DNA of 54,819 nt from a virus (IMGVR_UViG_3300031965_000715:1-54819); one strand, 5' to 3'; numbered from the stretch's first letter, positions 955 through 54,780 are shown. A program made the numbers and translations. The notes: a model not told the origin generated them from the sequence alone.

Positions 955-1010
955 GACCAGTGACCAGTGACCAGTGACCAGTAACCAGTAACCAGTAATC
1001 AGTAACCAGT
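955..1010. repeat. Tandem heptamer array (G/A)ACCAGT x8
   Basis: GACCAGT x4, AACCAGT x2, AATCAGT, AACCAGT; intergenic. Confidence 0.95.
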
Positions 1011-1039
1011 ATCGGTAGATACTTAAGAAAGTGTTAATA

Positions 1040-2014
1040 TTAACTAGCTTGCCACGACGTACGCTCTTGCGTACAAATCTCACCACTCACTTCCTGTTTC
1101 TCTTCACCAATACTGCACATCTCCAATGCTATTTGAATTGCTTTAGAATTAATATCCTTGTTAGCACCAAACCAGAGACTATTAAGCCTGGTCTCTGGAT
1201 TACGACCAGCCTCAAAATTTAGGTACTCAGTAATAGCATTGAGTGCAGCGTACCATGTGCCTCGCACTTCAATAGCTTGATTACCTGTACCTTGGACAAA
1301 AAGAACTTTGAGCCTCTCAATTTTATTGAGACTTTTGGTTGAAGCGTCCTTTTTAATTTTAAAGACACGCTCAAAGTATTCCTGCAATTCTTCTGGTGTG
1401 GGCCACACCTTAGTAAGAAACTGCAGTTGGCTCACAAACTCATCAACAGACCCCATTGTCTCCTCTATTCTAGTTTTGAGGAGTTTCAGTTTCTCTGCGG
1501 GGTCACCAGTATGCTTGAACTTAATGATTTCAAAGTCACCTTTGTTAAGCATACTAAACATATTGCTGCACCAAACTCTGATAGGTACTACACCAACCAT
1601 GACTTGCGTAGAACCATCGTGTGCATTTACTAGAAGTAAATACATAGCAACACGATCGGAGCCAGCAATATATCTCATTGCTCCATTAATTTCCGCTAGT
1701 ATCCATACCTTTCTCCCTCCATCAATACAGCCTATTGTATCAATAGAACAGACTCTTTCATTTAGTAATGGTTGGAAGAAGGCGAATGCTTCGCCGTTTT
1801 GAAGTGGAACAAATTTAGTTTTACACTGCCCAAGGGCAGCGTTTGTGTCAGTACGTACGATATACTTATAACCATTTGCTTCGTGAAGAATACTGTCTCC
1901 ACTTTTAAAGTAACCTTGCTTAACTTCTACATGGAAAAGGATATTAGCTTCTTCCATGGCGGTAGCTAGGTCGTCGTTAATTGTAATTTTAATTCCAGTT
2001 TCTTTCCAACTCAT
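1040..2014 (-). CDS. DUF932 family phage/plasmid protein
   Basis: VRTDT..LG, PLQN.EAF.FF, GGRKVW, YLLLVNAHDGS, PIRVWCSN, KHT, GTWYAALNAITEY, RLNSLWFG motifs. Confidence 0.88.
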   Translation of the reverse strand: MSWKETGIKITINDDLATAMEEANILFHVEVKQGYFKSGDSILHEANGYKYIVRTDTNAALGQCKTKFVPLQNGEAFAFFQPLLNERVCSIDTIGCIDGGRKVWILAEINGAMRYIAGSDRVAMYLLLVNAHDGSTQVMVGVVPIRVWCSNMFSMLNKGDFEIIKFKHTGDPAEKLKLLKTRIEETMGSVDEFVSQLQFLTKVWPTPEELQEYFERVFKIKKDASTKSLNKIERLKVLFVQGTGNQAIEVRGTWYAALNAITEYLNFEAGRNPETRLNSLWFGANKDINSKAIQIALEMCSIGEEKQEVSGEICTQERTSWQAS

Positions 2015-2166
2015 CGTAACATCCAGTTCGGTTTGTTTCTGTAATTAATACCAGCAGCGTAACCTGCTACAAGGTCGTAGTATTCAAATACTCCTAATTC
2101 CATTGGGATAAATAAATCGTACCCATTTATTGCTGCCTCAAATCCGAATCTAAAATAATGTATCAT
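2011..2166 (-). CDS. Small hypothetical protein (51 aa)
   Basis: Manual translation MIHYFRFGFEAAINGYDLF...NWMLR; fills the gap, and its TGA overlaps the next ATG (ATGA). Confidence 0.55.
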   Translation of the reverse strand: MIHYFRFGFEAAINGYDLFIPMELGVFEYYDLVAGYAAGINYRNKPNWMLR

Positions 2167-2175
2167 CTCCTTGCC

Positions 2176-2607
2176 TTAGTTATCGAACCAAAATACGAAG
2201 CGGAATTCCTCTATCTCTTTAGGATATTCACTCCTATACTCCCTGAAAGAATTAAATCTATTACCAAAAAGAAAACAAAAGTACTCTGATGGGGCAAGAA
2301 ATCTTTTTGGTTCATTTTTAACTAACCATTTACAAACTTTTATTACTTCATCAGTTAGTAGATAGCTAGCTGAATGAGCATCCATGCCCCAATGTACGTA
2401 GTCAAGTTTTGTTGTAAAAGTGACGTCATCAGGTATACCACGAAAACTGGCCACTGGTTCTATATAACCTTCCTGGTCTGGTAGTGGATTACGCACACCA
2501 CCCATTAAAGAAAACAGTTCATAGTTTCGTGGAACTCCAGGGTGATTGTAATGGTGCCAGTGACCAGCAACCTTTATCTCAATATGTAAGTGAATATCAC
2601 ATCCCAT
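2176..2607 (-). CDS. Conserved phage hypothetical protein (MGCDIH...FWFDN type)
   Basis: MGCDIH N-terminus, RNYELF..M.GVR, RGIPDD, HSASYL and C-terminal FVFWFDN are typical of a common phage family. Confidence 0.75.
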   Translation of the reverse strand: MGCDIHLHIEIKVAGHWHHYNHPGVPRNYELFSLMGGVRNPLPDQEGYIEPVASFRGIPDDVTFTTKLDYVHWGMDAHSASYLLTDEVIKVCKWLVKNEPKRFLAPSEYFCFLFGNRFNSFREYRSEYPKEIEEFRFVFWFDN

Positions 2608-2611
2608 AATA

Positions 2612-3616
2612 TTATCTCCCTACCATTTCTCGAAGAAAATCGTCACCTTCCTCAAAAGCTTTGTACTGGTTGTCAAGAGTCTGACAACGTAGTGCTGAGT
2701 CCGAGTACGACATGTTGCGGAAAATATGATTAGAATTAATAATTTCCCACAACTCAGAAAACCTAGCAACACACCGCAGTTGATAAGGCTTGCTAACTAT
2801 GCAGCGGTGTTCAGCCACTCTTATTCTTGGGCAGTCTGGCTCGAATGGTTGACATGCTAATTGGTCAATAGCAGCAATAAAATCACTGCCTACTTCAGCC
2901 CCACATAACCACGCATAGCTAGCTAGTTGTAAAGCCCAATCTTTATCAACATCTTCAAGAAACATACCGACATTAATAAGTATGCCCATATGCTTCATCG
3001 GTTGACATTTTTTGTGGGCTTCGTTGTGAGACCTACTGTGCGGCCCCTCCCACCCATCACGACATTTAAGATAGCCAGGTTTTGGACTAGTATTGTAGTT
3101 ACCACAAAACCCATTAACTTTAAAGTCAAGTATAATAGGAACACCAGACTTATGAATAAAATAAACATCAGGCTTTCCAAGCAACGGAACACCACGGATT
3201 TCTTTTTCGAGTTTGAACTCGAATCTTGGTTCTCCTTGTGCCTCTTGCAGTTGGAGTAGTAAGTCTGCCATTGCTCCCGACCGTTGATACGAGTTAAAGG
3301 CATGTTTTCCGGCTCCCAGTGCCCAGTCACGGTTTTGCTCTTCGACTTGTTCTTCAAATATAGTCGCTAGAGCAAATTGTGGATTAGTTCCTTTACCGAA
3401 TAAGACGTCATGAAAATAGCTCTTAATGTAGGCGTCAAAAGCAGAACCTACGGCCATTGGTTGTGTTTGTGGGATGCGAGGGGGCCTATTATCTGCTAAG
3501 TATTGCAGATAAAATTCTTCTGGATCAGCTTCCCACTTTAGAAGTGACGTTGGTGAAAGATATTTAGGTTTTCTCATTGTCCACATCCTCCAAAGCTCGT
3601 TTAAGTGTAACTCCAC
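2612..3616 (-). CDS. PD-(D/E)XK Cas4/RecB-like exonuclease
   Basis: YLSPTSL, GSAFD, GKPD...ILDFKV, QLASYAW motifs; the true start is probably near 3578-3584. Confidence 0.78.
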   Translation of the reverse strand: MELHLNELWRMWTMRKPKYLSPTSLLKWEADPEEFYLQYLADNRPPRIPQTQPMAVGSAFDAYIKSYFHDVLFGKGTNPQFALATIFEEQVEEQNRDWALGAGKHAFNSYQRSGAMADLLLQLQEAQGEPRFEFKLEKEIRGVPLLGKPDVYFIHKSGVPIILDFKVNGFCGNYNTSPKPGYLKCRDGWEGPHSRSHNEAHKKCQPMKHMGILINVGMFLEDVDKDWALQLASYAWLCGAEVGSDFIAAIDQLACQPFEPDCPRIRVAEHRCIVSKPYQLRCVARFSELWEIINSNHIFRNMSYSDSALRCQTLDNQYKAFEEGDDFLREMVGR

Positions 3617-3653
3617 AAGTCCCTACATACTGGCTTCTTAATCATGTGTACCG

Positions 3654-3914
3654 TTACCTAATTATTTCATCCACTGCTACCTTTGCCCTTTCAATTATTG
3701 CTTCCAGTGGTAGAATACTATAATCTTCATTTGCAAATAGGCCAGCAGTTACTATAGCTGTTAATAGTTGCAAATTTTGGCGATCATCTGTAATATGGAA
3801 ACCTTCTTTTGCTCTTTTTACACGAAGAACACAAGCTCCATCAACACAAACCCAAAGTCTTCCGTCCTTTGAAAGTTGAATACCTACAATTTCGACATCT
3901 TGAAAGTCTAGCAT
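3654..3914 (-). CDS. Hypothetical protein
   Basis: 86-aa ORF with AAGGA SD. Confidence 0.65.
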   Translation of the reverse strand: MLDFQDVEIVGIQLSKDGRLWVCVDGACVLRVKRAKEGFHITDDRQNLQLLTAIVTAGLFANEDYSILPLEAIIERAKVAVDEIIR

Positions 3915-3944
3915 AGCTTAGTTCCTTAATAAAATTAATAGTAA

Positions 3945-4033
3945 CCTAACCCAGTGCCCAGTAACTTTTGTTAAAGCTAGCGTTTGCTAAAATTAATTAT
4001 TTGGTAAAGTTAGTTACTGGGCACTGGGTTAGG
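3945..4033. repeat. Perfect 22-bp inverted repeat whose arms carry the CCAGTGCCCAGT motif
   Basis: CCTAACCCAGTGCCCAGTAACT (3945-3966) and AGTTACTGGGCACTGGGTTAGG (4012-4033). Confidence 0.95.
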
Positions 4034-4034
4034 C

Positions 4035-4089
4035 CCTACTTTGTACAAAGTACAAAGTACAAAGTACAAAGTACAAAGTACAAAGTAGG
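4035..4089. repeat. Tandem heptamer GTACAAA x6 inside a CCTACTTTGTAC/GTACAAAGTAGG inverted repeat
   Basis: Six exact units at 4043-4084, read directly. Confidence 0.95.
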
Positions 4090-4309
4090 ACTGTGTCAAT
4101 ATGCCTGGGCCAGCACTGGATTAAACACTATTGTTTAGGAGCTATCTCCTAACCCTTTCCCAGTCGGGTGATGTCACTAGTGCCCAAACTAACTAATTAA
4201 TGTATGTAACCTAGTATTTATCTTTTCATCTCAACACTTACCTTTCCTCATGCTATTTATGTAATTTTAAAATTCGGCGGATCTCTAATTCTTTTCATAA
4301 ATTTACTCC

Positions 4310-4936
4310 TTACTTCCACAGGTTCTCATCGTCCGCAAAGTGTGGCAACAATAGGTCTCGTTTTCTGGTAAAACCCATTGTAATTTTAATAAGTCTTTCG
4401 GGATTGTGAGAGTTTGACCAAAAGAAACATTTTAACTTTTTCCAACATAAGTTCTGCCCCTCACTGGTAAGCATATAATCCAGTAATTTTTCAGTATATG
4501 CGTACGGGCCGAGTGGGTGCTGAGTATTTCGCATTGAGGTTTCTAGAAACCTGCGAAAGGTACTCATATTTTGCATGACAGAGGCTTCATGATAGGCGTA
4601 AGCAGCATTCCTTTGCTGCATATTTTCACAATAGGTTCTACACCAACTGTCTAGGTGGAAAGTCCTATCCCACCAGTAGCCTTCCCACAGTGTAGGAGTT
4701 GGCAAGTACAAAGTATTTTTACTATGTTCCATAGTAGCTCGACTGTGACCAGCACCAAATTTAGACAAGTGAAACCACTTACCTATTTTACGTGCCCAGT
4801 CAAATGCCTTGCCAAGTGCTGCCTTGAGCCTGATCTCCTTATCCATATTGCCACCAAACGGCAAATTGGAGTCGTCATAATCATCTGGGTACTGAACGAT
4901 ACTGTGTTTTGGCTCGCACATAGTTACTTCCTCCAA
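4310..4936 (-). CDS. Hypothetical protein
   Basis: 208-aa ORF overlapping the ligase stop; no recognised motif. Confidence 0.65.
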   Translation of the reverse strand: MEEVTMCEPKHSIVQYPDDYDDSNLPFGGNMDKEIRLKAALGKAFDWARKIGKWFHLSKFGAGHSRATMEHSKNTLYLPTPTLWEGYWWDRTFHLDSWCRTYCENMQQRNAAYAYHEASVMQNMSTFRRFLETSMRNTQHPLGPYAYTEKLLDYMLTSEGQNLCWKKLKCFFWSNSHNPERLIKITMGFTRKRDLLLPHFADDENLWK

Positions 4937-5943
4937 AAGCGGGCTTCTTTGGGAATACCACTATCGGTTAATTCCCGATACTTAAACGTAACAATACTAC
5001 CTACTGGGAACTGTACATTAAGCACTTTCACAGTAGATACTTCTTCTCCAGGTTCCCCATATGCACGTCCACCATCCCTGCTAGATAGCACACGTTCGGC
5101 TTCAGTAAAGCCGGACAACTCAAAAGTTTTCCCGTGCCACCTAACTACAAGGGCACCCATTAATCCTTCGAGTTTCCCATGGCCCCAAACATAACCAGTG
5201 ACCAGTGCCTCATCGTCGAGCCACTTTTTAATTTTAAGTAAATCATTGTTTCTGCTTGGGTACCAGTATGATGACGGATTACGAAGCACTACGCCTTCTC
5301 CGCCATTAACAGTTACTGTATCGAGAATATTCTCGATAGCTTCCTCAGCCTCAGAAGTCTGCATGGGTAGCCGTATCTGTTCTACGTACTGCCAAATTTT
5401 AGACTCAGGCATTTTTTGAAGCCTTGCGTAGACTTCCCTAAAAGATAAAACCTTGGTTCTACCTGATGGGGCATAACTTTCCAGGTCTAACTCAGCTTTC
5501 CAGTGTGGGACGCTAATATTACCATCTAAAAACATTAATTTGTCAGATGGAATATCAAAAACCTTATAGGTAACATCTTTCCATTCACTGGTCACTGGGT
5601 CAAATTTTTTAACAGTAGACATGAGCTTCTGGAAGTTGCCACGTCCAGCATATAGCTCGCCATCCAAAGGTAGATTTTCTGGAAGCTGATCGAGAAACCA
5701 CTCAGGGGCAGCAATAGGTTTGCCGTATCGCGACCACAAACCGGTACTCCGTGGCGGGGTAATTCGTCTGTAGTCTTTTGTGGTGTTTGCAAATGGTATG
5801 GACGAAGTAAGTATACCTCTGGTGAAACCACCATCCCAGTATGCTCGCATACCATCTAATTTTTCAGAGAGATACCAACCTCCGATACCATGTTTTTTTG
5901 GATCAAAGGTGTGAGCCAGTTGTAGAAACTCACGTCTTGCCAT
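4924..5943 (-). CDS. lig: ATP-dependent DNA ligase
   Basis: SEKLDGMRAYWDG (motif I, KxDG), LDGELY, VFD, EGVVLR, LLKIK and a C-terminal OB fold (TFKYRELTDSGIPKEARF). Confidence 0.95.
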   Translation of the reverse strand: MARREFLQLAHTFDPKKHGIGGWYLSEKLDGMRAYWDGGFTRGILTSSIPFANTTKDYRRITPPRSTGLWSRYGKPIAAPEWFLDQLPENLPLDGELYAGRGNFQKLMSTVKKFDPVTSEWKDVTYKVFDIPSDKLMFLDGNISVPHWKAELDLESYAPSGRTKVLSFREVYARLQKMPESKIWQYVEQIRLPMQTSEAEEAIENILDTVTVNGGEGVVLRNPSSYWYPSRNNDLLKIKKWLDDEALVTGYVWGHGKLEGLMGALVVRWHGKTFELSGFTEAERVLSSRDGGRAYGEPGEEVSTVKVLNVQFPVGSIVTFKYRELTDSGIPKEARFWRK

Positions 5944-7221: not shown

Positions 7222-7669
7222 ATTCCTCTTTTAGCTCTTTGTTAATACCACACCCCATAACTATAACTCTAATACCTTGCTTTTTTGCCCAGCTAATAAC
7301 TGGGGCAATACTTTTGTTAGAGTTACCAATAATTACTGTGTCCGTTTTATCTATTAAACGGACTATATCCATTGCAATACCAACATCCCAGTCATACCAT
7401 GAGTTTTTCTCAACGAGCCTGTATTGTGGTTCAAATCCCATATGGTGAAGTGCAGTTATGAAAGAGTTTGCATTATCATCAATCTTAGTACCGTAAGCTA
7501 AAGCTCTATCAACATTACCGAAAGTAGCAGCCCTATCAAGATACTTTTTGTAGTCTAGTTTTTTGCCTGGCCACCTCTTACTGATACAGTAAAACTGATT
7601 TCCAACATCAATAAATACCATTACTTTACTAGCCATTTTTACCTCACGGGGCAGAAGCCTGATGAACAT
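7145..7669 (-). CDS. NYN (LabA/DUF88, PIN-like) domain protein
   Basis: VFIDVGN, DVGIAMD, G.RVIVMG and LKEECDQWIEI; likely start MASKV (7636). Confidence 0.85.
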   Translation of the reverse strand: MFIRLLPREVKMASKVMVFIDVGNQFYCISKRWPGKKLDYKKYLDRAATFGNVDRALAYGTKIDDNANSFITALHHMGFEPQYRLVEKNSWYDWDVGIAMDIVRLIDKTDTVIIGNSNKSIAPVISWAKKQGIRVIVMGCGINKELKEECDQWIEIDESMLEQEHEHEVAKATE

Positions 7670-9579
7670 TCTAAATTTTCCTGTAAATTCCGTTCCTCGG
7701 AATCCACTATAGAGTAAATTGATTTGATTGCTGATTCCATTTCTGCATATTGTTCTTTTGTTATCTCCTCATAAGGTGCTTGAGTAAATCCGTGGCCAGA
7801 ATGTAGTAAGAATGAAACTGATTTAATAGAGGTATTGTAATTTTCAGTAAGATACTCTCTAATTTGAGGTATCTCACCTTTGTGATAGTAGCACGTTGCT
7901 GAAACTGAATTATCCGACCAGTATACTTGAGCTAATTCTTGAAATTTTAACTGGTCAATAACTGAGACATCTTTAGCAAGTATAGTTCCAGTTGGAGTTT
8001 TAATTGGAAAACTAATAATCATAGTTTCTAAATTCCTTGAGCCATCCTCATTGATTTTAGGCTCAATAGGATAACCACTTTCTCTACACATTTTAACTAT
8101 GGGGTCGTTAGATGAAAAACGTATACGTCTTACATAGTATTCAGCAAAAGCTGGATGTATTCCAGGCGTAACACCAGGCAACAGTGATAGTGTACCAGAA
8201 GGCTTAACTGTTGTTAGTTTTATCGAAGTACCAGTGCCCAGTAACCGGCTATACTGTGTATCTTCTTCCTCAATAGCCCTATAAACTGTAGTAAGTTTTT
8301 GTGGCTTTCTAACCCACTGACTTTGTAAGATACCAGTCAACCCAATACCTAAACGATGGTTACGCGACACTACTTCATTGACTTTATTATCGCTACATGG
8401 GTAGCATGATATAGTTTTACAAACCTTATAACCAAGTATTGCTGCCGTTATAAGTTCATCCATTGAGTTGAGGTTAGGTGTAAACAACTCAAAAAGATTA
8501 CAAGCTTCATATGGTTCTAATGGTACTTCACCACATGGGTTAGTACCTGTAACACCTGTGTCCGGCCTAGAGTGTTGTACGTCATCAAGCCTGCCATATG
8601 TGCGGCACAAGTCCAAATTAATTAGGCCATATGGCTCACCTGTACCTGAGTAATTTTCCCAAAAAGTCTCTGGTAACTCTCTTACATCATTACATGCAAC
8701 AGAGTTATTACTCATACCACGCCAATTGGGTACAGAAAACTTATCCCAGCTTTTAGCTGTTAAAAATAAATTGTCATCTGGCGAGCCAAGAGCTAACTCA
8801 GCCGATCGTCTAACATTACCGGCAACAACAATATCACCAATTATATTTAAAATATCAAGACAGTCAATAGGTCTAAGTTTCCTACCTACGCGACTCTGCA
8901 TTATACCTACAATTTTAGATATACCTTGAACTAGATTTTCAGAACCTGAGGCAGTACCACCAAAGCTGGAAATAGGTCTGCCTTTAGAGCGTATACATAC
9001 AGTGGAATACTTAAGATTTTTTCCCGTTTCAAAGAAACATCTAAGTGTTTTTCGTAAAAGTTCTACCCATCCCTCCCTATTATCTGGTACTATAAAATCG
9101 ACATCATTTTCATCTACACGGACAACACTAACACCATACTTTACTGTAGGTAATTCATATACAAACTCAGGTTGTATATTAAAACCTACGCCGCCACCAA
9201 GCATAAGTTGATTAAAAGTAAAGCAGAAAGAATGTAGCTCTGTAATAGCTACGTGCCAGCAATTTTGTAGGCTATCGGCTCCAATCCTATGGATATTTGA
9301 TGTGCCTAGCTGCCACAAAGCACGCCCAGAGAAACAGCACCTAAGATTAAAAACATAGTCATAAAGCTGCTGTATCTCTTCACTAGTAAATATGCCACCT
9401 ATATCTAAAATACCTTGACAGCATCTAGCTACAGTTTGCCACCATTCTTCTGTTTCACCACTATCTGTCAATCTAGCGTATGTACGCTTATAAACAACAT
9501 ACCCAAGTGGACCCCAGTTAGGTTGTTTGCCACGGTACTTTTCGATAAAGGAACTATTAAGCGAGTTCACGTAACGCAT
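7639..9579 (-). CDS. nrdJ: Class II (adenosylcobalamin-dependent) ribonucleotide reductase
   Basis: VYKRTYAR, SGRALW, NCW, LMLGGGVGF, VAGNVRRSA, TNPCGE, TVKPSGT and C-terminal CSSGFCP; no beta subunit gene nearby. Confidence 0.95.
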   Translation of the reverse strand: MRYVNSLNSSFIEKYRGKQPNWGPLGYVVYKRTYARLTDSGETEEWWQTVARCCQGILDIGGIFTSEEIQQLYDYVFNLRCCFSGRALWQLGTSNIHRIGADSLQNCWHVAITELHSFCFTFNQLMLGGGVGFNIQPEFVYELPTVKYGVSVVRVDENDVDFIVPDNREGWVELLRKTLRCFFETGKNLKYSTVCIRSKGRPISSFGGTASGSENLVQGISKIVGIMQSRVGRKLRPIDCLDILNIIGDIVVAGNVRRSAELALGSPDDNLFLTAKSWDKFSVPNWRGMSNNSVACNDVRELPETFWENYSGTGEPYGLINLDLCRTYGRLDDVQHSRPDTGVTGTNPCGEVPLEPYEACNLFELFTPNLNSMDELITAAILGYKVCKTISCYPCSDNKVNEVVSRNHRLGIGLTGILQSQWVRKPQKLTTVYRAIEEEDTQYSRLLGTGTSIKLTTVKPSGTLSLLPGVTPGIHPAFAEYYVRRIRFSSNDPIVKMCRESGYPIEPKINEDGSRNLETMIISFPIKTPTGTILAKDVSVIDQLKFQELAQVYWSDNSVSATCYYHKGEIPQIREYLTENYNTSIKSVSFLLHSGHGFTQAPYEEITKEQYAEMESAIKSIYSIVDSEERNLQENLECSSGFCPVR

Positions 9580-9994
9580 TGTAAGCTCCTAATGCCTTAG
9601 CTATTTCACGAAAATCATCTGACCATAAGTCTACTATAAAACGCATTAGGCCAATTTGCTCATCTTTAGAAATGAGACCGTAAATAGGTATACCTCTTGA
9701 CCAAGCAGCCCCTACTTCAGCCCAAGCATCACATCCACTTGGACCAATATAAATAACAGCATCAGATTCAGTAGCACCTTTCGTATCAAATTTAAAAGAG
9801 TGCTGTGCATGTTCGGACTTTATCCACTCTTCAAAATTAACACAGGCATCAGGTTTGTAACTCTCACCAAAAGAGTTTTCAACAAATGACTTAACTTCAT
9901 GGCCTTGAGCACGAAGTATATCTGTCAACATTTCAACAGCATGTTGATTTTTCCAGGAGGAAGCAATATAGATTTGCATAGCTAACTTATCCAT
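9557..9994 (-). CDS. Nucleoside 2-deoxyribosyltransferase-like protein
   Basis: IYIASSW, SDAVI, AWAEVGAA..GIP match the NDT/RCL fold. Confidence 0.7.
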   Translation of the reverse strand: MDKLAMQIYIASSWKNQHAVEMLTDILRAQGHEVKSFVENSFGESYKPDACVNFEEWIKSEHAQHSFKFDTKGATESDAVIYIGPSGCDAWAEVGAAWSRGIPIYGLISKDEQIGLMRFIVDLWSDDFREIAKALGAYNALRELA

Positions 9995-17923: not shown

Positions 17924-17938
17924 ACATCACTATCTTAC

Positions 17939-17979
<41 letters not shown>

Positions 17980-17982
17980 GGG

Positions 17983-18012: not shown

Positions 18013-18025
18013 AATCCCTTGGGTG

Positions 18026-24438: not shown

Positions 24439-24440
24439 AC

Positions 24441-44033: not shown

Positions 44034-44187
44034 CGGTTCCCTTTCCGAAATAAAGATTAGCAGCCATCTCCCTCGCAGCCGCCGCGAGGTTGGACCGCAT
44101 CGTAGCCTGATCTTCGTCCCACTCACGAACACCGCTCTTGCGGATCAGTTCCACGGCAATTGCGAGTACCATTTCATTGATCGTCAT
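44023..44187 (-). CDS. Small hypothetical protein (54 aa)
   Basis: MTINEMVLAIAVELIRK...; its ATG overlaps the upstream TGA. Confidence 0.6.
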   Translation of the reverse strand: MTINEMVLAIAVELIRKSGVREWDEDQATMRSNLAAAAREMAANLYFGKGTDGD

Positions 44188-46413: not shown

Positions 46414-47683
46414 TCAATTTTACCCCCTCTAACTCAATATTAAGTTCTGTTCTATCACCATTAAAACTAGATCGTCTCGTTTGAATAAAATCTAGTGGAT
46501 TATTTGCTATTTTTACTTTCCAAATTTCACCTTTCCAATTTATCATTTTTAAATATTCACTATTATAATTTTTAAAAAAAGCCTCCATTTCAAGACCTTT
46601 CAACCTATCTACACTAAAAGTATATTTTAATCTTCTATTTCTACTAGACTTAACGTATGTTTTTAAATTTCCAGCCATACTTCTATATATTGCTATATTC
46701 GATATTAAGTTTTCTGTATCACCCATTAGCGGTGCTGGTGTGACCATTGATGTTTTTATAAATTTAAAAGGTGCTTGAAAAATTACAAAATTTTTCGTGC
46801 CTATTATAATATTAAATATATTTTGGTCGAGATAAGTTTCATCTTTAACCGAAAAATTCAAAACATAATTAGTTTCAATATTTTGATTTATATTTAATAC
46901 ATCACTTACTTCTAAATAATATGTAGAATCTGTTGAAAGTATTGAGCTAACAAGTGAAAGCTCACTCTCTACAGTTTCCACTGCTAGTATTATTGTAAAA
47001 CTACCTATACGTGCAAGATTTCCACGAGCACTTATTGTAGCCGAAATGTACTTTATATTTTCTCTTAAATTAGCACTAAGTAATACAGAAGTACTTATAG
47101 CAGATACAATAGCTGTTTGTCTTTGAATAGCTATATCTAGGCTACATGAGCAAGTTATACTGGTACTTAAAGCAGTTGTTGTTTGAAAGTCACCTACTAA
47201 AAACCCTGATCCATTTAAGGAACTAGTCAAATACTTTATATTTTCTCTTAGGTTAGCACTTACTGCTATCGAAGTATTGATACTAGCAGCAATATTTCTT
47301 TGTCTGTTAAAATCACCTATTAAAAATGCAAATAAAGATGCTCTCGCAGAAAAACTTCTTTGTCTGGTAAAAGTAGCTTCTACTTGAGCCGAGAGATTTA
47401 TTTCCGAAAAAATAGGTTCATATTCACTTACTATGGGATTTCCTGACACAAGGTAAGGTAGATATGTTCCTACTGGCCCAATATCACCATACCAACATGG
47501 ATATTCGTAATCAATTCCTCCCTTAGTCTCTGATATTGACCAGATACCTATAGTTATTGATTTTACAAGCCAGTAGCCATTATCTTCTCTTACATAAGCA
47601 TTCTCTCCACCATAAGTGCCACTTTCATTATATATACCAGTACAATCTGGATTTGGAGTACCGGTAACAAAATAACTACTCAT
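46406..47683 (-). CDS. Modular virion protein (N-terminal domain, Ser/Thr repeats, distal-tail-like C-terminal domain)
   Basis: Contains both repeat types seen in other virion genes. Confidence 0.6.
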   Translation of the reverse strand: MSSYFVTGTPNPDCTGIYNESGTYGGENAYVREDNGYWLVKSITIGIWSISETKGGIDYEYPCWYGDIGPVGTYLPYLVSGNPIVSEYEPIFSEINLSAQVEATFTRQRSFSARASLFAFLIGDFNRQRNIAASINTSIAVSANLRENIKYLTSSLNGSGFLVGDFQTTTALSTSITCSCSLDIAIQRQTAIVSAISTSVLLSANLRENIKYISATISARGNLARIGSFTIILAVETVESELSLVSSILSTDSTYYLEVSDVLNINQNIETNYVLNFSVKDETYLDQNIFNIIIGTKNFVIFQAPFKFIKTSMVTPAPLMGDTENLISNIAIYRSMAGNLKTYVKSSRNRRLKYTFSVDRLKGLEMEAFFKNYNSEYLKMINWKGEIWKVKIANNPLDFIQTRRSSFNGDRTELNIELEGVKLNG

Positions 47684-49413
47684 TATGCCTCTCCCCTTGT
47701 TTTAGGTTTTGGCACAACTTCTCCATCTTTATCCATTTTCTCATCCCGGCTAGCATTTGATATCCCACCCAAATCAGTTGTCCCTCTAGCTTTAGTTTGG
47801 GATTCTGCTATTCTTTTAACTCTTTCAGCGTGATCCTTGGCAGCCTTTTCAACCGACCCTTGTGGGTATCCTTTAGCCTTACTTGCTGTTTCAAGATCAA
47901 TAAGTCCTAATTCTATATCTCTTTGTAATTCTTCGGGATTAACAATTACTTCTGATCCATCGATTTCTTTTTTAATTTTAGCAAGTATTTCCATTGACAC
48001 TTTTGAACCAAGCGTAATATCAGCAACCTCCTTAAATACTTCTTTTCTATATGTTACTGAAGAAATTGTTTTTGAGGTTTGTAATAAATCTTTTGCTTCA
48101 TCTCGGCGATCTTTATCTGACTGAAGACTATATTTTTGTGGATACTTCACAGTGGCAACTGTAGTTCCACCCTCATACATATTCCAATATTTTGCTATAA
48201 GTTTTTCCCCATGTTCTAATTCAAGACCTATTGCACTCAGACCTGCTTCAAGACCTCTCTCATCATAATTCTTACTTTCTGCCGAAGCCATTTTTGGACT
48301 TAAATTTGATATTGCTAATTTTAATAATTGTCGAATATCTCTCTTAAGAGCCTCTTGTTTCTGCATGGAAGCTAGTAAAGGATCTGATGATGGGTGTATA
48401 TATTGAGGCAATTCAAGTCCTTTTGGGACACGTCTACCTTTTAATGCACCAATTTCAACTTCGTAATTTTTTGCAGCTATGGAATCATTTCGTTCACCAC
48501 CTTGAATAATTTCTACGCCACTATCACCTGATCCCACATTTTCATGCCCGACTGGTCTTCGATAGAGATTATCAACTCTTGGATCAAATTGCTCAACATA
48601 AAATGGAAAATTGCTATGTATAGCATAAGACATATCTGATGATGCCAAATTTAACATGGCAATTTGATAACTAGAAATATCACGTAAAAGGCTATCGGAT
48701 ATTTCAAAATTGACAAAAGGTATTATTGGTATATTTAAAACCAAGGGTGCTTTTACCTCGATTGAGTTTTCATCAAACACCCTAACTATAACTTTTTTAT
48801 CGACAACTTTTAACAATCTGTACCGTGATTGAAGAGATTTTGGGAGACCAGTATCTTTATCTCTTTCATATTCAAAATCCCGTAATAGTAACATCGTATA
48901 AATAGTTTTGTTTTTAGGGTCAACATCCCAATTCAAGATATTTTCAGTTTGATAGTGGTAAATATATGGCTGTATTCCCTGTTGCTCTCTTAAAGTCAGC
49001 CCTATATTACTTGGCATATCAACCAATACACCTACTCTCTTCATAGGAAGTAGTTCTGGTAAAATCCAAGTACCAATAAAACTATTCATTGTTGTGCCAG
49101 CAGCATCTACTCCACCATCTACACCAGATACTGCACTCTGATATGTTTTTGACCCACCCTCGCGAGTAACATCTGCAATACGTTGAAAAATCGAATCTAT
49201 AACTTCGTTTACGCCAGATTTTGCAAATGTTGGTATATTAGTAATATTTTTTCTATCTTCAAAATCGCTGTCTGTTTCTCTGTCACTATATTTAATAAGG
49301 TACTCTTCGACAAAGTCTTCTCCGCCTTGGTAGACAAGTCGCCACTTTTCCCAATCATCATAATACCCTTGGTATTCTGGATGAGTTAAATTAGCTATAT
49401 CTGTAATAGCCAT
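47683..49413 (-). CDS. Portal protein
   Basis: HPEY..YYDDWEKWRLVYQGG..YL.KYSDRETDSDFEDR, GVLVDMP, NILNW; follows TerL. Confidence 0.9.
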   Translation of the reverse strand: MAITDIANLTHPEYQGYYDDWEKWRLVYQGGEDFVEEYLIKYSDRETDSDFEDRKNITNIPTFAKSGVNEVIDSIFQRIADVTREGGSKTYQSAVSGVDGGVDAAGTTMNSFIGTWILPELLPMKRVGVLVDMPSNIGLTLREQQGIQPYIYHYQTENILNWDVDPKNKTIYTMLLLRDFEYERDKDTGLPKSLQSRYRLLKVVDKKVIVRVFDENSIEVKAPLVLNIPIIPFVNFEISDSLLRDISSYQIAMLNLASSDMSYAIHSNFPFYVEQFDPRVDNLYRRPVGHENVGSGDSGVEIIQGGERNDSIAAKNYEVEIGALKGRRVPKGLELPQYIHPSSDPLLASMQKQEALKRDIRQLLKLAISNLSPKMASAESKNYDERGLEAGLSAIGLELEHGEKLIAKYWNMYEGGTTVATVKYPQKYSLQSDKDRRDEAKDLLQTSKTISSVTYRKEVFKEVADITLGSKVSMEILAKIKKEIDGSEVIVNPEELQRDIELGLIDLETASKAKGYPQGSVEKAAKDHAERVKRIAESQTKARGTTDLGGISNASRDEKMDKDGEVVPKPKTRGEA

Positions 49414-51062
49414 TAGTACGCCTTTATGCTTTGTGAGGCTCCAAGAGACACTGCTAGAGGTAAAGCTATCTCTGAATAAGTACGTGAATGGGCAAAGTGA
49501 TCTTCCTCTTGCCCTCTAACATACTTTGCAATTGGATTCCCATCTTGATCTTTCTCATAAACTCTAACAAGAGCCTTCATATGATTTTTATATTCTCGTG
49601 GAATATCTTTTGGCAATATAATCATTTGTGACTTAAATCTACTTAGTGCCATATCTATCCATGATGTTCTATCAACAGTTACACTTAATTCGTTATTTGT
49701 ATCTTCATCAGAACTTAAATGTATTTGTTTTCCCTGTATACTACGTCCATAGTAGCAAAGCCTAACTTTTCCCCAAAATCTAGATGCAAATTCATAAGCT
49801 TTACGTCGTTCTGGTAGCATATCTACAATACAAAATAAAACATTATATTTAAACATAAACTGATCTAATTCTTCAAAGTGGTTAAGTTTTGCAACTGCTA
49901 AAACTTGGCACTTTGCTTCAGAGTTTATATCAACAACATTATTGCCTATGTGCCACTTATCTATTTCCACATGCAAATAGTTTCCAACATCAACACCCAT
50001 TGTTATAAGACCGGTACTGTTGGCCATTTGTGTTATATGATCTCCTATACAGTTATCAATATCTTTATCTGTAATTCTTGCACCTTCAACAACATGTGGC
50101 TTACCTAACTTTGAGTTAAAGAACTCCTGTTCATCGGCGGGGTTTGTTTTTGCTTTATAGTATTGATATACGATTTTACCTGGATGGACAGTTGATGAAT
50201 AAAGTTGACTTATTCCCCAACCAGCAATACTTCTATTTTCAAATTGGGATATCCATCTTCCTGTTTCTAACCATAAATACTTTTCCTCATGTGGTATTTT
50301 AACATAACAAAGTGGACATTTTATATAAGATTCAGTAATCCTTGGGTCATCATAGCCTTCACCAATTATTTCGATAGCATCCGGCCATGTTAAATTTATA
50401 TAACGTGAACAACTTTTACATCTAAAGAAAAATTCATTTTGTGTAGATTGATTAAAAGTTTCATTAATACCAAATCCATCAATAGTAGGAGTACTAATTT
50501 CCCATGTTTTATTTAAATCATACCCTGACTGTCTTTCTCTAGCCAGTGGTATGTTATCTTGATTCATCTCATCTTTTTCATCAAAAACTAATACACCTAC
50601 TGGAACAGACTTTAATCCCGATCGTGATTTTGCACCACGTAAGTAAAAATTTGTGTTTCCAGCTCTCTTATGACCAACATTTTTAACGTTGGAAAACATA
50701 CGCCGTAAATGCGGTGACAGTTCAAGGGCAGCATCAAATCGTGCCGCTGAAAAATCTGAAGCATCAGGTGTTTTTGATGGCAAGACGTACAGAACATCAA
50801 CTCCATGAACATCAATATAAAAGAAACAGATATTAAGTACAGTCTCAGTAAAGCCCATTTGAGCAGCTTTTTGACCAACATTAATATCTGCCTCTGAATT
50901 ATGCATACCACGGAGCCAGGGATGTTTTTTAAAAGTCCAAGGCCCAGCAAATGGTCTGCCCATTATTCGATAAGCCGTCGCCCAGCGTGCAGGATCAACT
51001 ATACTTTTTCGTTTCAATCCTGAAACAAGACGATCAGATAATAAATTAGCTAAAGTATGCAT
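49413..51062 (-). CDS. terL: Terminase large subunit (lambda GpA-like)
   Basis: KAAQMGFTE, FDEKD, ISTPT, CKSC/CPLC, FFNSKLG, MGVDVG, DHFAH. Confidence 0.93.
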   Translation of the reverse strand: MHTLANLLSDRLVSGLKRKSIVDPARWATAYRIMGRPFAGPWTFKKHPWLRGMHNSEADINVGQKAAQMGFTETVLNICFFYIDVHGVDVLYVLPSKTPDASDFSAARFDAALELSPHLRRMFSNVKNVGHKRAGNTNFYLRGAKSRSGLKSVPVGVLVFDEKDEMNQDNIPLARERQSGYDLNKTWEISTPTIDGFGINETFNQSTQNEFFFRCKSCSRYINLTWPDAIEIIGEGYDDPRITESYIKCPLCYVKIPHEEKYLWLETGRWISQFENRSIAGWGISQLYSSTVHPGKIVYQYYKAKTNPADEQEFFNSKLGKPHVVEGARITDKDIDNCIGDHITQMANSTGLITMGVDVGNYLHVEIDKWHIGNNVVDINSEAKCQVLAVAKLNHFEELDQFMFKYNVLFCIVDMLPERRKAYEFASRFWGKVRLCYYGRSIQGKQIHLSSDEDTNNELSVTVDRTSWIDMALSRFKSQMIILPKDIPREYKNHMKALVRVYEKDQDGNPIAKYVRGQEEDHFAHSRTYSEIALPLAVSLGASQSIKAY

Positions 51063-51616
51063 TAATCTTCTAATGGATTTTCAATTGCAAGAGTAGCCTG
51101 AGCCATTTCTTGGCTTATAGACTCAATAATATCTGGGTCCGATACATAATTATTAATAATTTGAACATATGTTGATGCAAGCTGTAAAACAGAAGATTTA
51201 TTTAATAATAATCCCATCCTGTTTTCTAATTTATCACAACTGGTCACTAGTCTCTCTATCTTCATAACTAAATCAGACATTTTTTGTGAGTAAAGCAAAA
51301 TATCTAAGCTTGTCTCACATTGATTTAGCATTTCTTCTAATACCATACGAAGAATACCTACTTCTTCGCGTAAGCTTTTAATATTATCATTGTCTGCAAA
51401 TTCACTTATTCTATTTTGCCATCTTTGTAACCTGTAGTTTCGTTGAATTTCAGTTTTTCTGGCATTTTCACCACTATTTGCACCATGCATTTCGCAATGA
51501 TTAGTGCTTCTAGCTTTTTTATATGGACACTGACCACTTTTTACAGTAGCTTCGCACCTTTCTCGTGGGTGATCTGTTTTTACATTCCAACGAACAAATT
51601 TATTATCAACTACCAT
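51062..51616 (-). CDS. terS: Putative terminase small subunit
   Basis: RCEA....GQC......CEMHG zinc motif, SLREEVGILR; directly upstream of TerL. Confidence 0.7.
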   Translation of the reverse strand: MVVDNKFVRWNVKTDHPRERCEATVKSGQCPYKKARSTNHCEMHGANSGENARKTEIQRNYRLQRWQNRISEFADNDNIKSLREEVGILRMVLEEMLNQCETSLDILLYSQKMSDLVMKIERLVTSCDKLENRMGLLLNKSSVLQLASTYVQIINNYVSDPDIIESISQEMAQATLAIENPLED

Positions 51617-52028: not shown

Positions 52029-52030
52029 AC

Positions 52031-52324
52031 CTAATTATTCCTTTGAAGCAAAGGAAATAGTTTTGGCCGAGTCAATAAATTTTTACGACACTGTTCATTT
52101 TCGCAGGAAGAAGTAGCTGCTTTAGGTGTCTCTTTAATTTGATTAGGTACTGGGAGTACCATTTCTATTTGTTTTGGCACCACCGCCTCTACTTCTACCT
52201 GCTCAACCACATAGCGATTTCTTTTTATCGCTATTGAAGAACAAATTAATCCACGCCACCGTCCAGCCTCTGCAATTGATGGGGCGACAAGTATCACAAT
52301 TGTTAAAAGTAGCAACTTTTTCAT
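52031..52324 (-). CDS. Small secreted protein
   Basis: Signal peptide MKKLLLLTIVILVAPSIAEA; C-terminal CENEQC plus basic tail. Confidence 0.7.
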   Translation of the reverse strand: MKKLLLLTIVILVAPSIAEAGRWRGLICSSIAIKRNRYVVEQVEVEAVVPKQIEMVLPVPNQIKETPKAATSSCENEQCRKNLLTRPKLFPLLQRNN

Positions 52325-53334
52325 TAGAGGAAACTCCCTGTTCCATAATTAGGAATAGTTTTTGCGGGAAAACCATCAATATCACTATAAAAATATATTG
52401 ATCTGCCTCCCAGAAAATACTGCTCCCAAACATCACCGTGAACTGTTATCATCCCATCAAAGGGAAAACCTACAAGTTTCTGAATTTCAATATCATTAAG
52501 CCATTTAGACCATTGCTGATTCCAAGTAGCCCAGCTATTAGCTACAAAGTAGACTCTAACAGGCCAGATTTCTCTGGTGTCATCATACCCAACAGTAGCC
52601 ATATCATGGTTCCACGTACCTTGTTTTGCGTGAATACCATTAGAGGTTGGAGTACTATTAAATCCTACATTCTGTCCAGAGTGGCAAGCATATCCATTTT
52701 GAAATAATGCTATGGCTTCATCAGATGTTTCAGGCACCAGATATTTGCCTACAGCGTGTTTTTTACACAAATCAAGAACTTCTTGTGGTGGGCCACTACC
52801 TCCCCACCTAGCTCCTGTATTTGAGTTATACTTAGTTAAGTCAACTACGCCCTCATAGTTTTGTCTAACTAAAAAGCCATACTCAGTGACAAATCGAGCG
52901 GCTCTGGCAGGGTCCATTCCCTGTCCGCCATGACCTCGATAGCCATAAGTAGGCTCTGTAGCACCTCTTTTATAGTATTCTTCAGCTTCACCTTTAATAT
53001 GTATTTCTATACTACGTGTAGTGTCTCTGGCACTTCTATCTCCATGTGAGGTACAGTCACCAGTAGTCTGTGATTCTTGTCCATAAGCCCCTGGATCAAA
53101 TAATTCTCGACTTCTATAGAGGCAAGCTCTTTTATTATTACCTGGATTAGTACGCAGTAGCTCTTCTACTGCATCAGGACCAAGGACAATACCGTCAGTA
53201 AATAATTTCTCGTACTCTATTGGATTTGTAGGTGCTCCAGGAAAACCGTTCTCGTATAATTTTAATAACTCTTGGGGGCTTGCCCCAGAGCCCAGTGACC
53301 AGTTCACTTTTGACCTCCTTTCCAGAAAGCCCAA
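52324..53334 (-). CDS. Papain-like (C1) cysteine peptidase
   Basis: QTTGDCTSH (oxyanion Q and catalytic C), WNHDMATVGYD (His), VANSW (Asn). Confidence 0.85.
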   Translation of the reverse strand: MGFLERRSKVNWSLGSGASPQELLKLYENGFPGAPTNPIEYEKLFTDGIVLGPDAVEELLRTNPGNNKRACLYRSRELFDPGAYGQESQTTGDCTSHGDRSARDTTRSIEIHIKGEAEEYYKRGATEPTYGYRGHGGQGMDPARAARFVTEYGFLVRQNYEGVVDLTKYNSNTGARWGGSGPPQEVLDLCKKHAVGKYLVPETSDEAIALFQNGYACHSGQNVGFNSTPTSNGIHAKQGTWNHDMATVGYDDTREIWPVRVYFVANSWATWNQQWSKWLNDIEIQKLVGFPFDGMITVHGDVWEQYFLGGRSIYFYSDIDGFPAKTIPNYGTGSFL

Positions 53335-54053
53335 GAAATTGCTTCAAAAATTTTACCCGTGGTCACTGGGTCAATAGATTTTACTTCTAACCCAATTTGC
53401 TCGGCTAAAATACCATCGATAATTTCAGGTAACCCAGCGTACTTACCGCGAATACCTGTATCTTCAAAAAATAATTTACCAGCCTCTACATAAGAGTCTC
53501 TTAACTGTGAGTTTGTAAGAGTTCCAGTTTGGGCGACCACTGAAGCAAAATCGCTATAAAACTCAATTAAGTTTTCACGATCTTTTGTACTGATATCAAG
53601 CTTATACTCTGTAAGCGAGGCTACAGCTTGCTTTAAATTAGGGGTAGGCTCTGGTGGACCTGGTACGGGTGGCACGGGCACGGGTGGCACGGGCACGGGC
53701 ACAGAACCGCCATAATTTACTTTATGCTCATACAAATTAAGTGTAGGTGGTCCACCTGTATTATTTGTAGCAACAATTAAGGTAAAGGTTTTAGTGCCAG
53801 CGACCAGTGACCAGTAGATGTTGATAGGGGTTCCATTTCTATCATACATTTCTATCCAAACATCGTCCTTAGACTCAGGGAAGATCCTCCATAGTGTGGT
53901 ACAGGTGTCATTGGAAGGTAAGCCTACAGTCAGTAACTGTATTGGCTGTTTAAGTACAGCTTCACTAGGTCCTACTATTTTTACTTCCTGTGCGAAAAGA
54001 GTTATCGGGAGAAGTAAAAATAGGAAAGTGAGAGTTCTATGGTTACTGGTCAC
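53304..54053 (-). CDS. Secreted protein with Ig-like domain, Pro-rich linker and helical C-domain
   Basis: Signal peptide; PVPVPPVPVPPVPGPPEPTP. Confidence 0.75.
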   Translation of the reverse strand: MTSNHRTLTFLFLLLPITLFAQEVKIVGPSEAVLKQPIQLLTVGLPSNDTCTTLWRIFPESKDDVWIEMYDRNGTPINIYWSLVAGTKTFTLIVATNNTGGPPTLNLYEHKVNYGGSVPVPVPPVPVPPVPGPPEPTPNLKQAVASLTEYKLDISTKDRENLIEFYSDFASVVAQTGTLTNSQLRDSYVEAGKLFFEDTGIRGKYAGLPEIIDGILAEQIGLEVKSIDPVTTGKIFEAISWAFWKGGQK

Positions 54054-54084
54054 TGGATTAGTCTCCTATTAATTTTAATAAAAG

Positions 54085-54360
54085 TTACACGCCAAAAATG
54101 GCAAGAAGTTGCAAGATAATAGGAAGCAATTTTTCTATAAAAGCAATAATAGAACTCAAGTCGATGCCTGGTTCAGATTCCCGTAATTGTGGCAAACTTT
54201 TGCCTATAATTTTTTCTAGAATTTTTTCAGCAATTTCTCGCCTTGTTGTTGGTTCAAAATCTGGATCAGAAGTAACTTCTTTAGCGGCTCTTAAAACGCT
54301 AATAAAGTTAACACCGAAACGTCTTCGATCTGAGGCAGCCATCTTGAAATCTCCTTGCAC
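54085..54360 (-). CDS. Small protein with C-terminal amphipathic/hydrophobic helix
   Basis: IDLSSIIAFIEKLLPIILQLLAIFGV; likely start MAASD (54342) after AAGGAG. Confidence 0.7.
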   Translation of the reverse strand: MQGDFKMAASDRRRFGVNFISVLRAAKEVTSDPDFEPTTRREIAEKILEKIIGKSLPQLRESEPGIDLSSIIAFIEKLLPIILQLLAIFGV

Positions 54361-54487
54361 GGTTTTTGCAACAAAAAAATTCTGAGATTTTTGGAGTGTT
54401 TTTCAACTCCAGATTTCTCTACATTAGATACAGACTACATAAATTGGAAATAAGTAATAGAATTTTTTTGTTATAAAAACCGTGCAA
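54355..54487. repeat. 29-bp inverted repeat (27/29) in the late-operon leader
   Basis: TTGCACGGTTTTTGCAACAAAAAAATTCT (54355-54383) and AGAATTTTTTTGTTATAAAAACCGTGCAA (54459-54487). Confidence 0.9.
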
Positions 54488-54564
54488 AAATAATTCAAAA
54501 TTTTCTTAGTCAATAGAGGGGGAGTGGACATGCGTTCAAGTAGTGACTTTACCCCATGATTATA

Positions 54565-54780
54565 ACCCCCTACCTGTACCAGTGACCAGTGTACAGATAC
54601 ACATACATGTACAGATACCCCCTACCTGTACCAGTGACCAGTGTACCAGTGTACATGTGTACATGTGTACATGTGCTCATATATAGAGCAAAGCTATCAG
54701 GTATCACTACACTGGGTAGGTACAAGTAGTGTAAACTACCTCTGGTAACTTTACACTGGCCACTGGGCACTTGTCACTTG
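54565..54780. repeat. Repeat cluster: two 30-bp direct repeats, GTACATGT x3 and reverse-oriented heptads
   Basis: ACCCCCTACCTGTACCAGTGACCAGTGTAC at 54565-54594 and 54617-54646; ACTGGCCACTGGGCACTTGTCACTTG from 54755. Confidence 0.9.

Follow-up and report, generated by a model that had tools for sequence, protein, structure and literature searches.

We have analysed a 12-nt motif, CCAGTGMCCAGT, that recurs in the genome of a tailed phage from soil or sediment (IMGVR_UViG_3300031965_000715); the window is the whole assembly, a single contig 54,819 bp long. At two units, the motif is a tandem heptamer repeat in its shortest form, with the unit CCAGTGA (A-type) or CCAGTGC (C-type). Its copies form facing pairs in which CCAGTGMCCAGT is followed, 28-380 nt further on, by the reverse copy ACTGGKCACTGG. 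We tentatively favour the reading that these are short tandem heptamer repeats of the short tandemly repeated repetitive (STRR) type acting as stem-forming signals, which would be read by a host-tied factor, would punctuate or mask cistrons, and would have been pushed into coding DNA. An earlier note, made from the sequence alone, had drawn attention to the motif, and all of the coordinates that it gave are correct; the facing-pair organisation and the kinship with STRR-type repeats were absent from it.

Abundance and nature of the motif

The genome contains 23 exact copies of CCAGTGMCCAGT, compared with none in 100 dinucleotide-preserving shuffles, and 36 copies with at most one mismatch, compared with 0.26 expected. 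The one-mismatch copies already placed at 2557, 28947, 51239 and 54755 are borne out, and further ones lie at 2446, 16200, 24402, 10489, 53285, 53797, 54762, 978 and 985; the GC content, put at about 35% in the earlier note, was measured as 37.9%. An unbiased ranking of 7-mers against an order-2 Markov model has only rotations of the heptamer unit at its top (for example GACCAGT, with 33 occurrences against 6.1 expected). Runs of period 7 number 72 against approximately 48-52 in shuffles, and the entire excess consists of the heptamer motif family (26 runs). The two-unit sites are made of two perfect units with a decaying third unit alongside. An eight-unit array (956-1011) reads (ACUGGUY)8 on the minus-strand transcript and ends approximately 20 nt 5' of the ribosome-binding site AAGGAG and the ATG of a 71-residue open reading frame (ORF), 718-933.

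The distribution of these sites over the genome is uneven. Non-coding DNA makes up 5.3% of the genome and holds 8 of the 23 exact copies. Most sites (20 of 27) fall in the early and replication region, an arm that begins at 53.2 kb, crosses the assembly junction, ends at 17.6 kb and accounts for 35% of the genome (P=4e-5). Between 30 and 42 kb, in the constrained structural block, there are zero exact copies. C-type sites cluster regionally, with eight of the nine falling within 3.3-17.5 kb. As had been observed before, exact copies are lacking both in the plus-strand operon (20162-25070), where a single one-mismatch copy lies at 24402, and in the high-GC island (approximately 42.5-44.6 kb), whose edge is touched by the pair 42155/42457.

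Constraint at the level of DNA

The 15 coding copies occupy three reading frames and both orientations. The earlier note had proposed a comparison with codon-preserving shuffles, and in 1000 synonymous-codon shuffles of 59 ORFs (52,374 nt) coding copies average 0.14 and never exceed 2; in the same comparison the 7-mer numbers 34 against 9.6 and CCAGT/ACTGG 156 against 105. The analysis bears out the peptides listed for these copies, which are encoded in three frames: LVTG, PVTS/PVPS, LGTG, W(S/A)L, TGHW and QCPV. Among the carrier genes named at that time, those for ligase, ribonucleotide reductase (RNR) and DHH phosphoesterase stand, the 'peptidase' finds no family match in any motif-bearing ORF, and tail genes are plausible carriers given their position adjoining the tape-measure gene.

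Alignment with homologues places the sites in variable or indel-prone loops of the ligase, DHH and RNR proteins, where the homologues have other residues. Relative to these homologues the sites have arisen mostly through substitutions, with some one-codon indels at the motif edge, and the spacers of the facing pairs are ordinary homologous coding sequence with no insertion. The use of three frames, the codon-shuffle control, the location in variable loops and the nucleotide conservation in a sister phage described below uphold the proposal that selection or drive acts on the nucleotides and not on the protein, and demonstrate DNA-level constraint or drive on the two-unit sites.

Facing pairs and predicted hairpins

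Within 400 nt, seven pairs run forward-then-reverse and the opposite order does not occur, with P=1e-4 in orientation shuffles and P<5e-5 against random positions. The same order is seen in three related phages (7 to 0 in G411, 6 to 1 in G406 and 2 to 0 in L158) and in the cyanobacterial genome G002 (5 to 0 among the first 100 places listed), which brings the tally over the five data sets to 27 to 1. This order is identical from either DNA strand, so that CCAGUG… comes before …CACUGG in every transcript, whichever its direction. Outer lengths of approximately 250 nt recur, being 254, 249 and 253 nt in the phage and 254 nt in L158.

Pairing probabilities were computed for isolated transcripts. 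For the short pairs and the intergenic pair 3945-4033, the predicted arm-to-arm probability is 0.83-1.00, with modelled values of 1.00 for the 3945-4033 hairpin, 0.83 for the 28872/28958 pair and 0.91 for the region 54567-54780. The predicted fold of 3915-4100 has a minimum free energy of -73.8 and a z-score of -9.0, and the hairpins predicted at the matching intergenic place of L158 have a z-score of -5.1. In both phages the stems of the intergenic hairpins are built from the motif and the loops are unrelated, and the hairpin precedes a U-rich tract, a ribosome-binding site and a start codon, which on the minus strand of the phage is that of ORF 3654-3914. A simple terminator scan leaves the motif hairpins unflagged because it allows loops of 3-8 nt only. 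Elsewhere, the reverse arm at 54045-54056 includes the GTG start codon of ORF 53304-54053, with AGGAG 9 nt upstream, and the copy at 29706-29717 has 18-nt complementarity to the region 28867-28884.

Other repeats stand beside some of these sites. A perfect (GTACAAA)6.4 array of an unrelated heptamer (4043-4087) adjoins the intergenic motif hairpin and forms a hairpin of its own with its flanks; metagenome contigs break there. The two 30-nt direct repeats at 54567-54648 have the sequence CCCCCTACCTGTACCAGTGACCAGTGTACA and are followed by an 8-nt TGTACCAG/GTGTACAT array. An inverted repeat with 43-nt arms (84%) at 54341-54501 lies in a 450-nt non-coding region.

Distribution among related phages

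Nine relatives were examined. The sister phage L158, a 12.2-kb metagenome contig with the same gene order, has approximately 73% DNA identity to the phage (amino-acid identities of 84% for the polymerase, 82% for RNR and 60% for DHH) and carries seven motif copies. Three of the five sites that can be aligned with it are identical, against 0.097 expected from identical 12-nt windows in the same genes (9/840 in DHH, 106/1927 in RNR and 10/995 in ligase; P=1.4e-4). The identical sites are both DHH arms and the RNR site at 8231; the two ligase sites are absent from L158, which differs there at 6-7 of 12-15 positions. Within the DHH gene, which has 64% DNA identity overall and 3-nt indels at the motif edges, no DNA is better conserved than the motif sites. 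This conservation points to constraint rather than to a passing mutational signature. Exchange of the segment between the DHH arms as a cassette was considered and rejected, the amino-acid identity to L158 being 0.61, 0.59 and 0.59 before, between and after the arms.

The more distant G411 (L251; 55% identity for ParB1 and 51% for the helicase) carries 26 copies in 35.7 kb (727 per Mb), nearly all of C-type, whereas L159 and L175, which are closer to the phage (68% and 65% for the polymerase), carry one copy each in 16-19 kb. Motif presence thus does not appear to track phage descent, as judged from identity ranks and path lengths only, because trees of the polymerase, ParB1 and the helicase leave the placement of L251 unresolved. 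Further relatives have heptamers of their own. G406 carries CCAGGGC and CCAAGGC at 20 sites in the same layout, with 11 of 19 sites intergenic or at gene edges and with pairs that span gene junctions and one start codon; G407 (L240) carries CCAGCGA, again in this layout; and G408 and G410 have weak heptamer families.

Within this group, a facing pair of L251 (8633-8909) encloses a whole 78-residue ORF whose N-terminus repeats QKPVPS, set by two motif copies, and the 3' arm of this pair lies 22 nt ahead of the helicase start codon. A positional match of the pair in ORF 17047-17586 with L251 8660-8909 was rejected, the L251 pair enclosing a different small ORF. In G407, an array of approximately 26 CCCGTGC units (60551-60734), one base off the C-type unit of the phage, shows that long arrays occur in the phage group.

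Occurrence in cellular genomes

A 19-mer of the repeat is found in reference genomes in at least 120 stretches; of the 80 listed, 36 are cyanobacterial, with 13 in Scytonema, 6 in Aliterella and 5 in Chroococcidiopsis, and the rest are distributed over many phyla. In five such cyanobacterial genomes the 12-mer is present at 14-134 per Mb. Among 401 sampled genomes of the cyanobacterial phylum, four are rich in it (134 per Mb in G001, 140 in G205, 37 in G317 and 22 in G357) and 262 have none. The backward-read pattern is in these counts a rotation of the A-type tandem unit, and hence no control. Its abundance in some cyanobacterial genomes means that the heptamer is not exclusive to the phage. 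In metagenomes that contain the phage, the k-mer depth of the array is far above that of the phage, for example 346 against 30.

The cellular copies form long arrays outside genes, with none of 45 clusters in an ORF of at least 100 residues, and 15 of 19 'single' sites also lie outside a long open frame. In G205 the hits are concentrated in few long arrays (approximately 24 forward-strand clusters in 1.53 Mb); a polarity of the arrays relative to the chromosome replication arms was rejected for this genome, both strands being intermixed. In G002, facing arrays surround spacers of 100-140 nt that are mutually unrelated. The phage has 420 copies per Mb, whereas the richest of approximately 405 genomes reaches no more than 140 per Mb. 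The alternative that the motif is a host signature, raised in the earlier note, is therefore right as to the abundance of the heptamer in some cyanobacterial genomes, but a phage density three times that of the richest genome examined speaks against it.

Comparison with known repeat systems

STRR sequences, with units such as CCCCAGT, were reportedly described in cyanobacteria by Mazel et al. in 1990. Later reports describe TAACTGA repeats, of the heptamer class, in Beggiatoaceae and cyanobacteria (PMC4679880) and heptamer repeats in Nostoc (bioRxiv 10.1101/2022.06.06.494920), place them often just ahead of start codons, and give their function as still unknown, with a binding protein postulated. 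We found no literature linking heptamer repeats with cyanophage, although related heptamers may figure in the supplementary tables to PMC4679880. The 12-mers themselves appear literally in 84 papers, and the 15 of these that were listed concern other subjects, judging by their titles and opening lines. Like the cyanobacterial repeats, the phage motif has a 7-nt tandem unit, many dispersed copies far above chance, a patchy distribution over cyanobacteria plus a few other phyla, and, at 956-1011, an intergenic array ahead of a start codon; the phage heptamer itself forms arrays in Scytonema, Aliterella, Chroococcidiopsis and other cyanobacteria. Unlike them, it occurs in the phage mostly as two-unit sites and not as arrays, it lies within genes in 15 of 23 cases where the cellular copies examined avoid genes, and its copies are organised as facing pairs.

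Two further classes of hyper-abundant short sequences offer a comparison. The DNA uptake sequences of Neisseria and uptake signal sequences of Haemophilus (DUS/USS) are 9-12-mers present at hundreds per Mb, in genes, in all frames and at tolerant positions; their inverted pairs act as intergenic terminators, and phages of those hosts carry them as well. Unlike the phage motif, however, DUS/USS are richest in the chromosome and not in the phage, and the phage unit is a tandem heptamer; we know of no uptake specificity in candidate hosts. HIP1 (GCGATCGC) of cyanobacteria is a palindromic octamer linked to methylation, which is hyper-abundant, lineage-specific and also present inside genes, its cause being debated. 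The phage motif, in contrast, is not palindromic. The earlier note had offered a HIP1-like, methylation-directed origin as an alternative, and this finds little support: HIP1 has 0 copies in the phage, and a Pfam scan of 50 ORFs revealed no methyltransferase.

Proposed role and alternative explanations

Our data suggest a model in which the facing pairs would be stem-forming signals and would act on the molecule of which they are part. The pairs may be recognised as folds in transcripts or in single-stranded DNA, and the putative recognising factor would go with the host and not with phage ancestry; the motif is common to cells and to phages that are not the closest relatives and is missing from closer ones, which points to a host-associated determinant. 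Intergenic hairpins just 5' of the next ribosome-binding site may punctuate transcripts, through termination, processing or stability, or may mask the start codon. Most copies would be accommodated in tolerant loops of early and replication proteins, the sites being placed in coding DNA because only approximately 5% of the genome is non-coding. Recognition of the folded form is, we infer, consistent with two features, the fixed order of the arms and the conservation of motif-stemmed hairpins ahead of start codons.

Several points weigh against this model. In five of nine pairs tested, the predicted arm pairing is at most 0.05 (5195/5598, 10496/10749, 17234/17482, 42155/42475 and 53804/54056), and stems inside genes would be opened by translating ribosomes. 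The fixed arm order is unexplained by base pairing alone, and a putative fold-reading factor is required. The conserved arms are always identical, leaving no compensatory changes to score. The A/C variant match between arms, seen in 6-7 exact pairs, was set aside as confounded evidence for pairing: it is not independent, because C-type sites cluster regionally, and three variant pairs mismatch. Approximately eight sites have no partner. The coding copies of the phage are without cellular precedent, since cyanobacterial copies are almost never in genes. Finally, the variant heptamers of G406 and G407 are rich in none of the 401 cyanobacterial genomes, with a maximum of 24 hits in 7 Mb, and the host link is therefore weaker for these two phages.

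A more far-reaching form of the stem-signal model, which we regard as unlikely, is that facing two-unit pairs serve a clade of soil and sediment phages as a programmable address code. A dedicated protein would read the fold and mark early-region cistrons for processing, silencing or protection; the cyanobacterial STRR arrays would be the cellular side of this system, and the phage would copy a 'self' or regulatory mark of its host. Each phage or phage-host pairing would have its own version of the code, CCAGTGM, CCAGGGC or CCAGCGA.

The main rival is a neutral, host-driven process, in which biased repair, templated short-patch conversion from heptamer arrays or an uptake-like bias writes the heptamer into replicating DNA, to be purged where the sequence is constrained, with no function for the phage. 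Such a process, which we hold to be possible but somewhat unlikely, agrees with the presence of the heptamer in cellular genomes, with the restriction of sites to tolerant protein loops and their over-representation in non-coding DNA, and with the lack of copies in the structural block. It would also account for a motif presence that is independent of phage relatedness, and for ligase sites whose differences from L158 are of the extent that a patch event would give. It sits less well with a motif density above that of the richest cellular genome, where the copies are gathered in few long arrays, and with the avoidance of genes by cellular copies. Three of the five alignable sites are identical despite approximately 27% DNA divergence, although continuing drive could do likewise. 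The strict pair order and the outer length of approximately 250 nt are not predicted by it, and the Pfam scan that bears on the HIP1-like origin counts against it as well.

Alternatively, the sites may be bound as double-stranded DNA by a phage protein in segregation, compaction or early-region regulation, the candidate being a ParB-like protein; two units would form the minimal cooperative site, and the A and C subtypes might serve two paralogues. ParB-parS, Noc and MatP sets comprise tens of dispersed sites, some inside genes, with one reader protein, and the P1 parS and pSM19035 omega operators are built of heptamers; the parS consensus itself is a palindrome of approximately 16 bp, present in few copies near the par genes. 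The phage resembles such sets in encoding two ParB_N+HTH_ParB proteins and in carrying approximately 25 dispersed sites, concentrated in the one 19-kb arm described above, and the relatives' own heptamer variants are what co-evolving protein/site pairs would give. Yet the phage site is a direct, non-palindromic repeat with no copy in or beside either ParB gene, orthologues of ParB1/ParB2 (46-68% identity) are encoded by relatives with few or no sites (L159, L175, G408 and G410), and cellular genomes are filled with the same heptamer. A binding protein of the ribbon-helix-helix or omega-like kind was also considered, and none was found among 10 small ORFs. These observations tell against the parS/matS-like site suggested in the earlier note and make the protein-bound alternative distinctly unlikely.

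Mobility of the kind shown by REPINs, miniature inverted-repeat transposable elements (MITEs) or small dispersed repeats, with the inverted pair copied by a transposase supplied elsewhere, seems very improbable to us. The fixed-order inverted doublets of the phage do resemble REPINs, the paired form that repetitive extragenic palindromic (REP) elements take: in PMC3116915, these are short, over-represented inverted doublets (93% of 430 are inverted) with a preferred order and predicted hairpins in single-stranded DNA or mRNA. Spacers of approximately 28, 84-138 and 205-240 nt recur, too. The REPINs described there are, however, extragenic, with a conserved spacer and a REP-associated tyrosine transposase (RAYT), and the phage has none of these three features. 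Its spacers are homologous coding sequence with no insertion, DHH identity is the same inside and outside the pair, and the spacers of cellular pairs are mutually unrelated. No Y1 transposase (PF01797) was found in the 50 phage ORFs scanned, and none of 12 Y1-transposase loci in motif-rich cyanobacterial genomes carries the motif within 1.5 kb.

A packaging signal (pac or cos) for the terminase to read, another suggestion of the earlier note, can draw on the one-mismatch copy in the ORF adjoining the large terminase gene and on the dense copies in non-coding DNA at 54.4-54.8 kb, but it is hardly credible: pac and cos sites are single or tightly clustered, whereas these sites are dispersed over at least 19 kb on both strands without clustering at the terminase genes, the motif is also found in cellular genomes and between the genes of relatives, and the genome closes as a circle.

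Genome context and other features

The genome is taken as complete, and as circular or circularly permuted, because a pentapeptide-repeat ORF closes across the end-to-start join, meeting a stop codon 5 nt beyond the junction. This pentapeptide-repeat gene (1-700, minus strand; Pfam Pentapeptide, E=9e-71) has a 15/45/90-nt tandem periodicity, and the metagenome k-mer depth of its region far exceeds that of the phage. The phage collection holds no close DNA relative, its protein matches being remote (23-36% identity), and near-identical DNA is present in soil and sediment metagenomes of four studies, of which one may be where the phage sequence came from. No RNA datasets are listed among the public sequencing runs with matching DNA, and the genome has no Rfam matches or tRNAs. 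In addition to the genes in Table 1, it encodes a PD-(D/E)XK nuclease, an NYN-domain protein and two sigma-like proteins. No family match was found for the 179-residue ORF 17047-17586.

Table 1. Motif sites and principal genes of the phage genome.
Feature	Coordinates	Strand	Remarks
Exact forward copies (starts)	957/964/971 (array), 3316, 3951, 5195, 8231, 10496, 17234, 28872, 42155, 53292, 53804, 54579, 54631	+	
Exact reverse copies (starts)	4016, 5587, 10738, 17471, 29706, 42457/42464, 54045	-	
Array, 8 units	956-1011	+	GACCAGT x4, then AACCAGT/AATCAGT variants; between genes; period 7, 8.0 copies, 93% matches
Variant copy CCAGTGGCCAGT	2446-2457	-	Inside ORF 2176-2607
One-mismatch copy	2557-2568	+	Inside ORF 2176-2607
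Exact C-type copy	3316-3327	+	PD-(D/E)XK nuclease gene; peptide DWALG, built on conserved RDWA motif
Perfect intergenic hairpin	3945-4033		Motif at 3951 forward/4016 reverse; 22-nt arms, 100% complementary; 45-nt loop
Facing pair, ligase gene	5195-5598		5195 forward (ALVTG), 5587 reverse (PVTSE); spacer 381 nt
Single C-type copy	8231-8242	+	Class II RNR gene; LLGTG, variable loop
Facing pair, DHH gene	10489-10749		10489-10507 forward, 10738-10749 reverse; outer length 254 nt
One-mismatch copy	16200-16211	+	Helicase gene
Facing pair, ORF 17047-17586	17234-17482		Outer length 249 nt; gene-start-proximal arm at codon 35
One-mismatch copy	24402-24413	-	Sole copy in plus-strand operon; orientation flips along with gene orientation
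Short facing pair, ORF 28741-29664	28872-28958		28872 forward exact, 28947 reverse one mismatch; spacer 64 nt
Exact copy	29706-29717	-	Near 3' end of ORF 29667-30323, approximately 45 nt ahead of next gene start
Facing pair, ORF 42038-42562	42155-42475		42155 forward, 42457-42475 reverse (2.7 units); edge of high-GC island
One-mismatch copy	51239-51250	-	ORF 51062-51616, adjoins large terminase gene
Copy	53285-53303	+	Junction of ORF 53304-54053 and ORF 52324-53334
Facing pair, ORF 53304-54053	53797-54056		Outer length 253-260 nt
Non-coding control-like region	54567-54780		Two 30-nt direct repeats with motif (54579, 54631 forward); facing reverse copy 54755-54773
Large terminase	49413-51062		Structural gene
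Portal	47683-49413		Structural gene
Major head protein	36879-38297		Structural gene
Tape measure	30323-33676		Structural gene
DNA polymerase	11873-14107		Replication gene
Helicase	15146-17050		Replication gene
Primase	20162-22855		Replication gene
Class II RNR	7639-9579		Replication gene
ATP-dependent DNA ligase	4924-5943		Replication gene
DHH phosphoesterase	9982-10857		Replication gene
Two ParB-like proteins	14308-15156 and 18787-19818		ParB_N and HTH_ParB domains in each (Pfam)

ThyX is encoded within 22852-24438 (plus strand), followed by a PF18909 protein (dATP/dGTP diphosphohydrolase N-terminal domain, E=1e-25) and an RNase T-like exonuclease, and a weak nucleoside 2-deoxyribosyltransferase-like ORF lies at 9557-9994. 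These genes hint at nucleotide-pool editing or a modified base; no PurZ-like gene was found among the ORFs scanned. In the high-GC island (42500-44600), the GC content is 0.45-0.63 compared with 0.38 for the genome, and a LamG/concanavalin-like domain protein is encoded at 42559-43443. An AT-rich sulfotransferase gene (44670-45533) comes after the island, and the two together resemble a host-recognition module that has been swapped in.

The divergent region between the ParB-like gene and the primase operon contains, at 19948-20097, an inverted repeat (34-nt arms, 94% complementary; 82-nt spacer) that may be an origin or an operator. The intergenic gap 17587-18025 contains a perfect (TAA)13 microsatellite (17940-17978), which read and contig alignments skip. 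Two 63-nt tandem repeats (40773-40926 and 41322-41452; 2.1-2.4 copies, 91-95% matches) lie in a 716-residue ORF (39906-42056) for which no family match was found.

Implications

Few features of cyanobacterial genomes have gone unexplained for as long as tandem heptamer repeats. The phage shows what the cellular arrays do not, namely a minimal unit of two heptamers, a fixed geometry of facing pairs (often of approximately 250 nt outer length) and direct constraint at the level of DNA, and an open descriptive question becomes testable within a 55-kb genome. Annotators should be aware that short conserved peptides such as PVPSD and LGTG are imposed by the DNA in these genes. The motif is also a possible sequence marker for the pairing of uncultured phages with their hosts.

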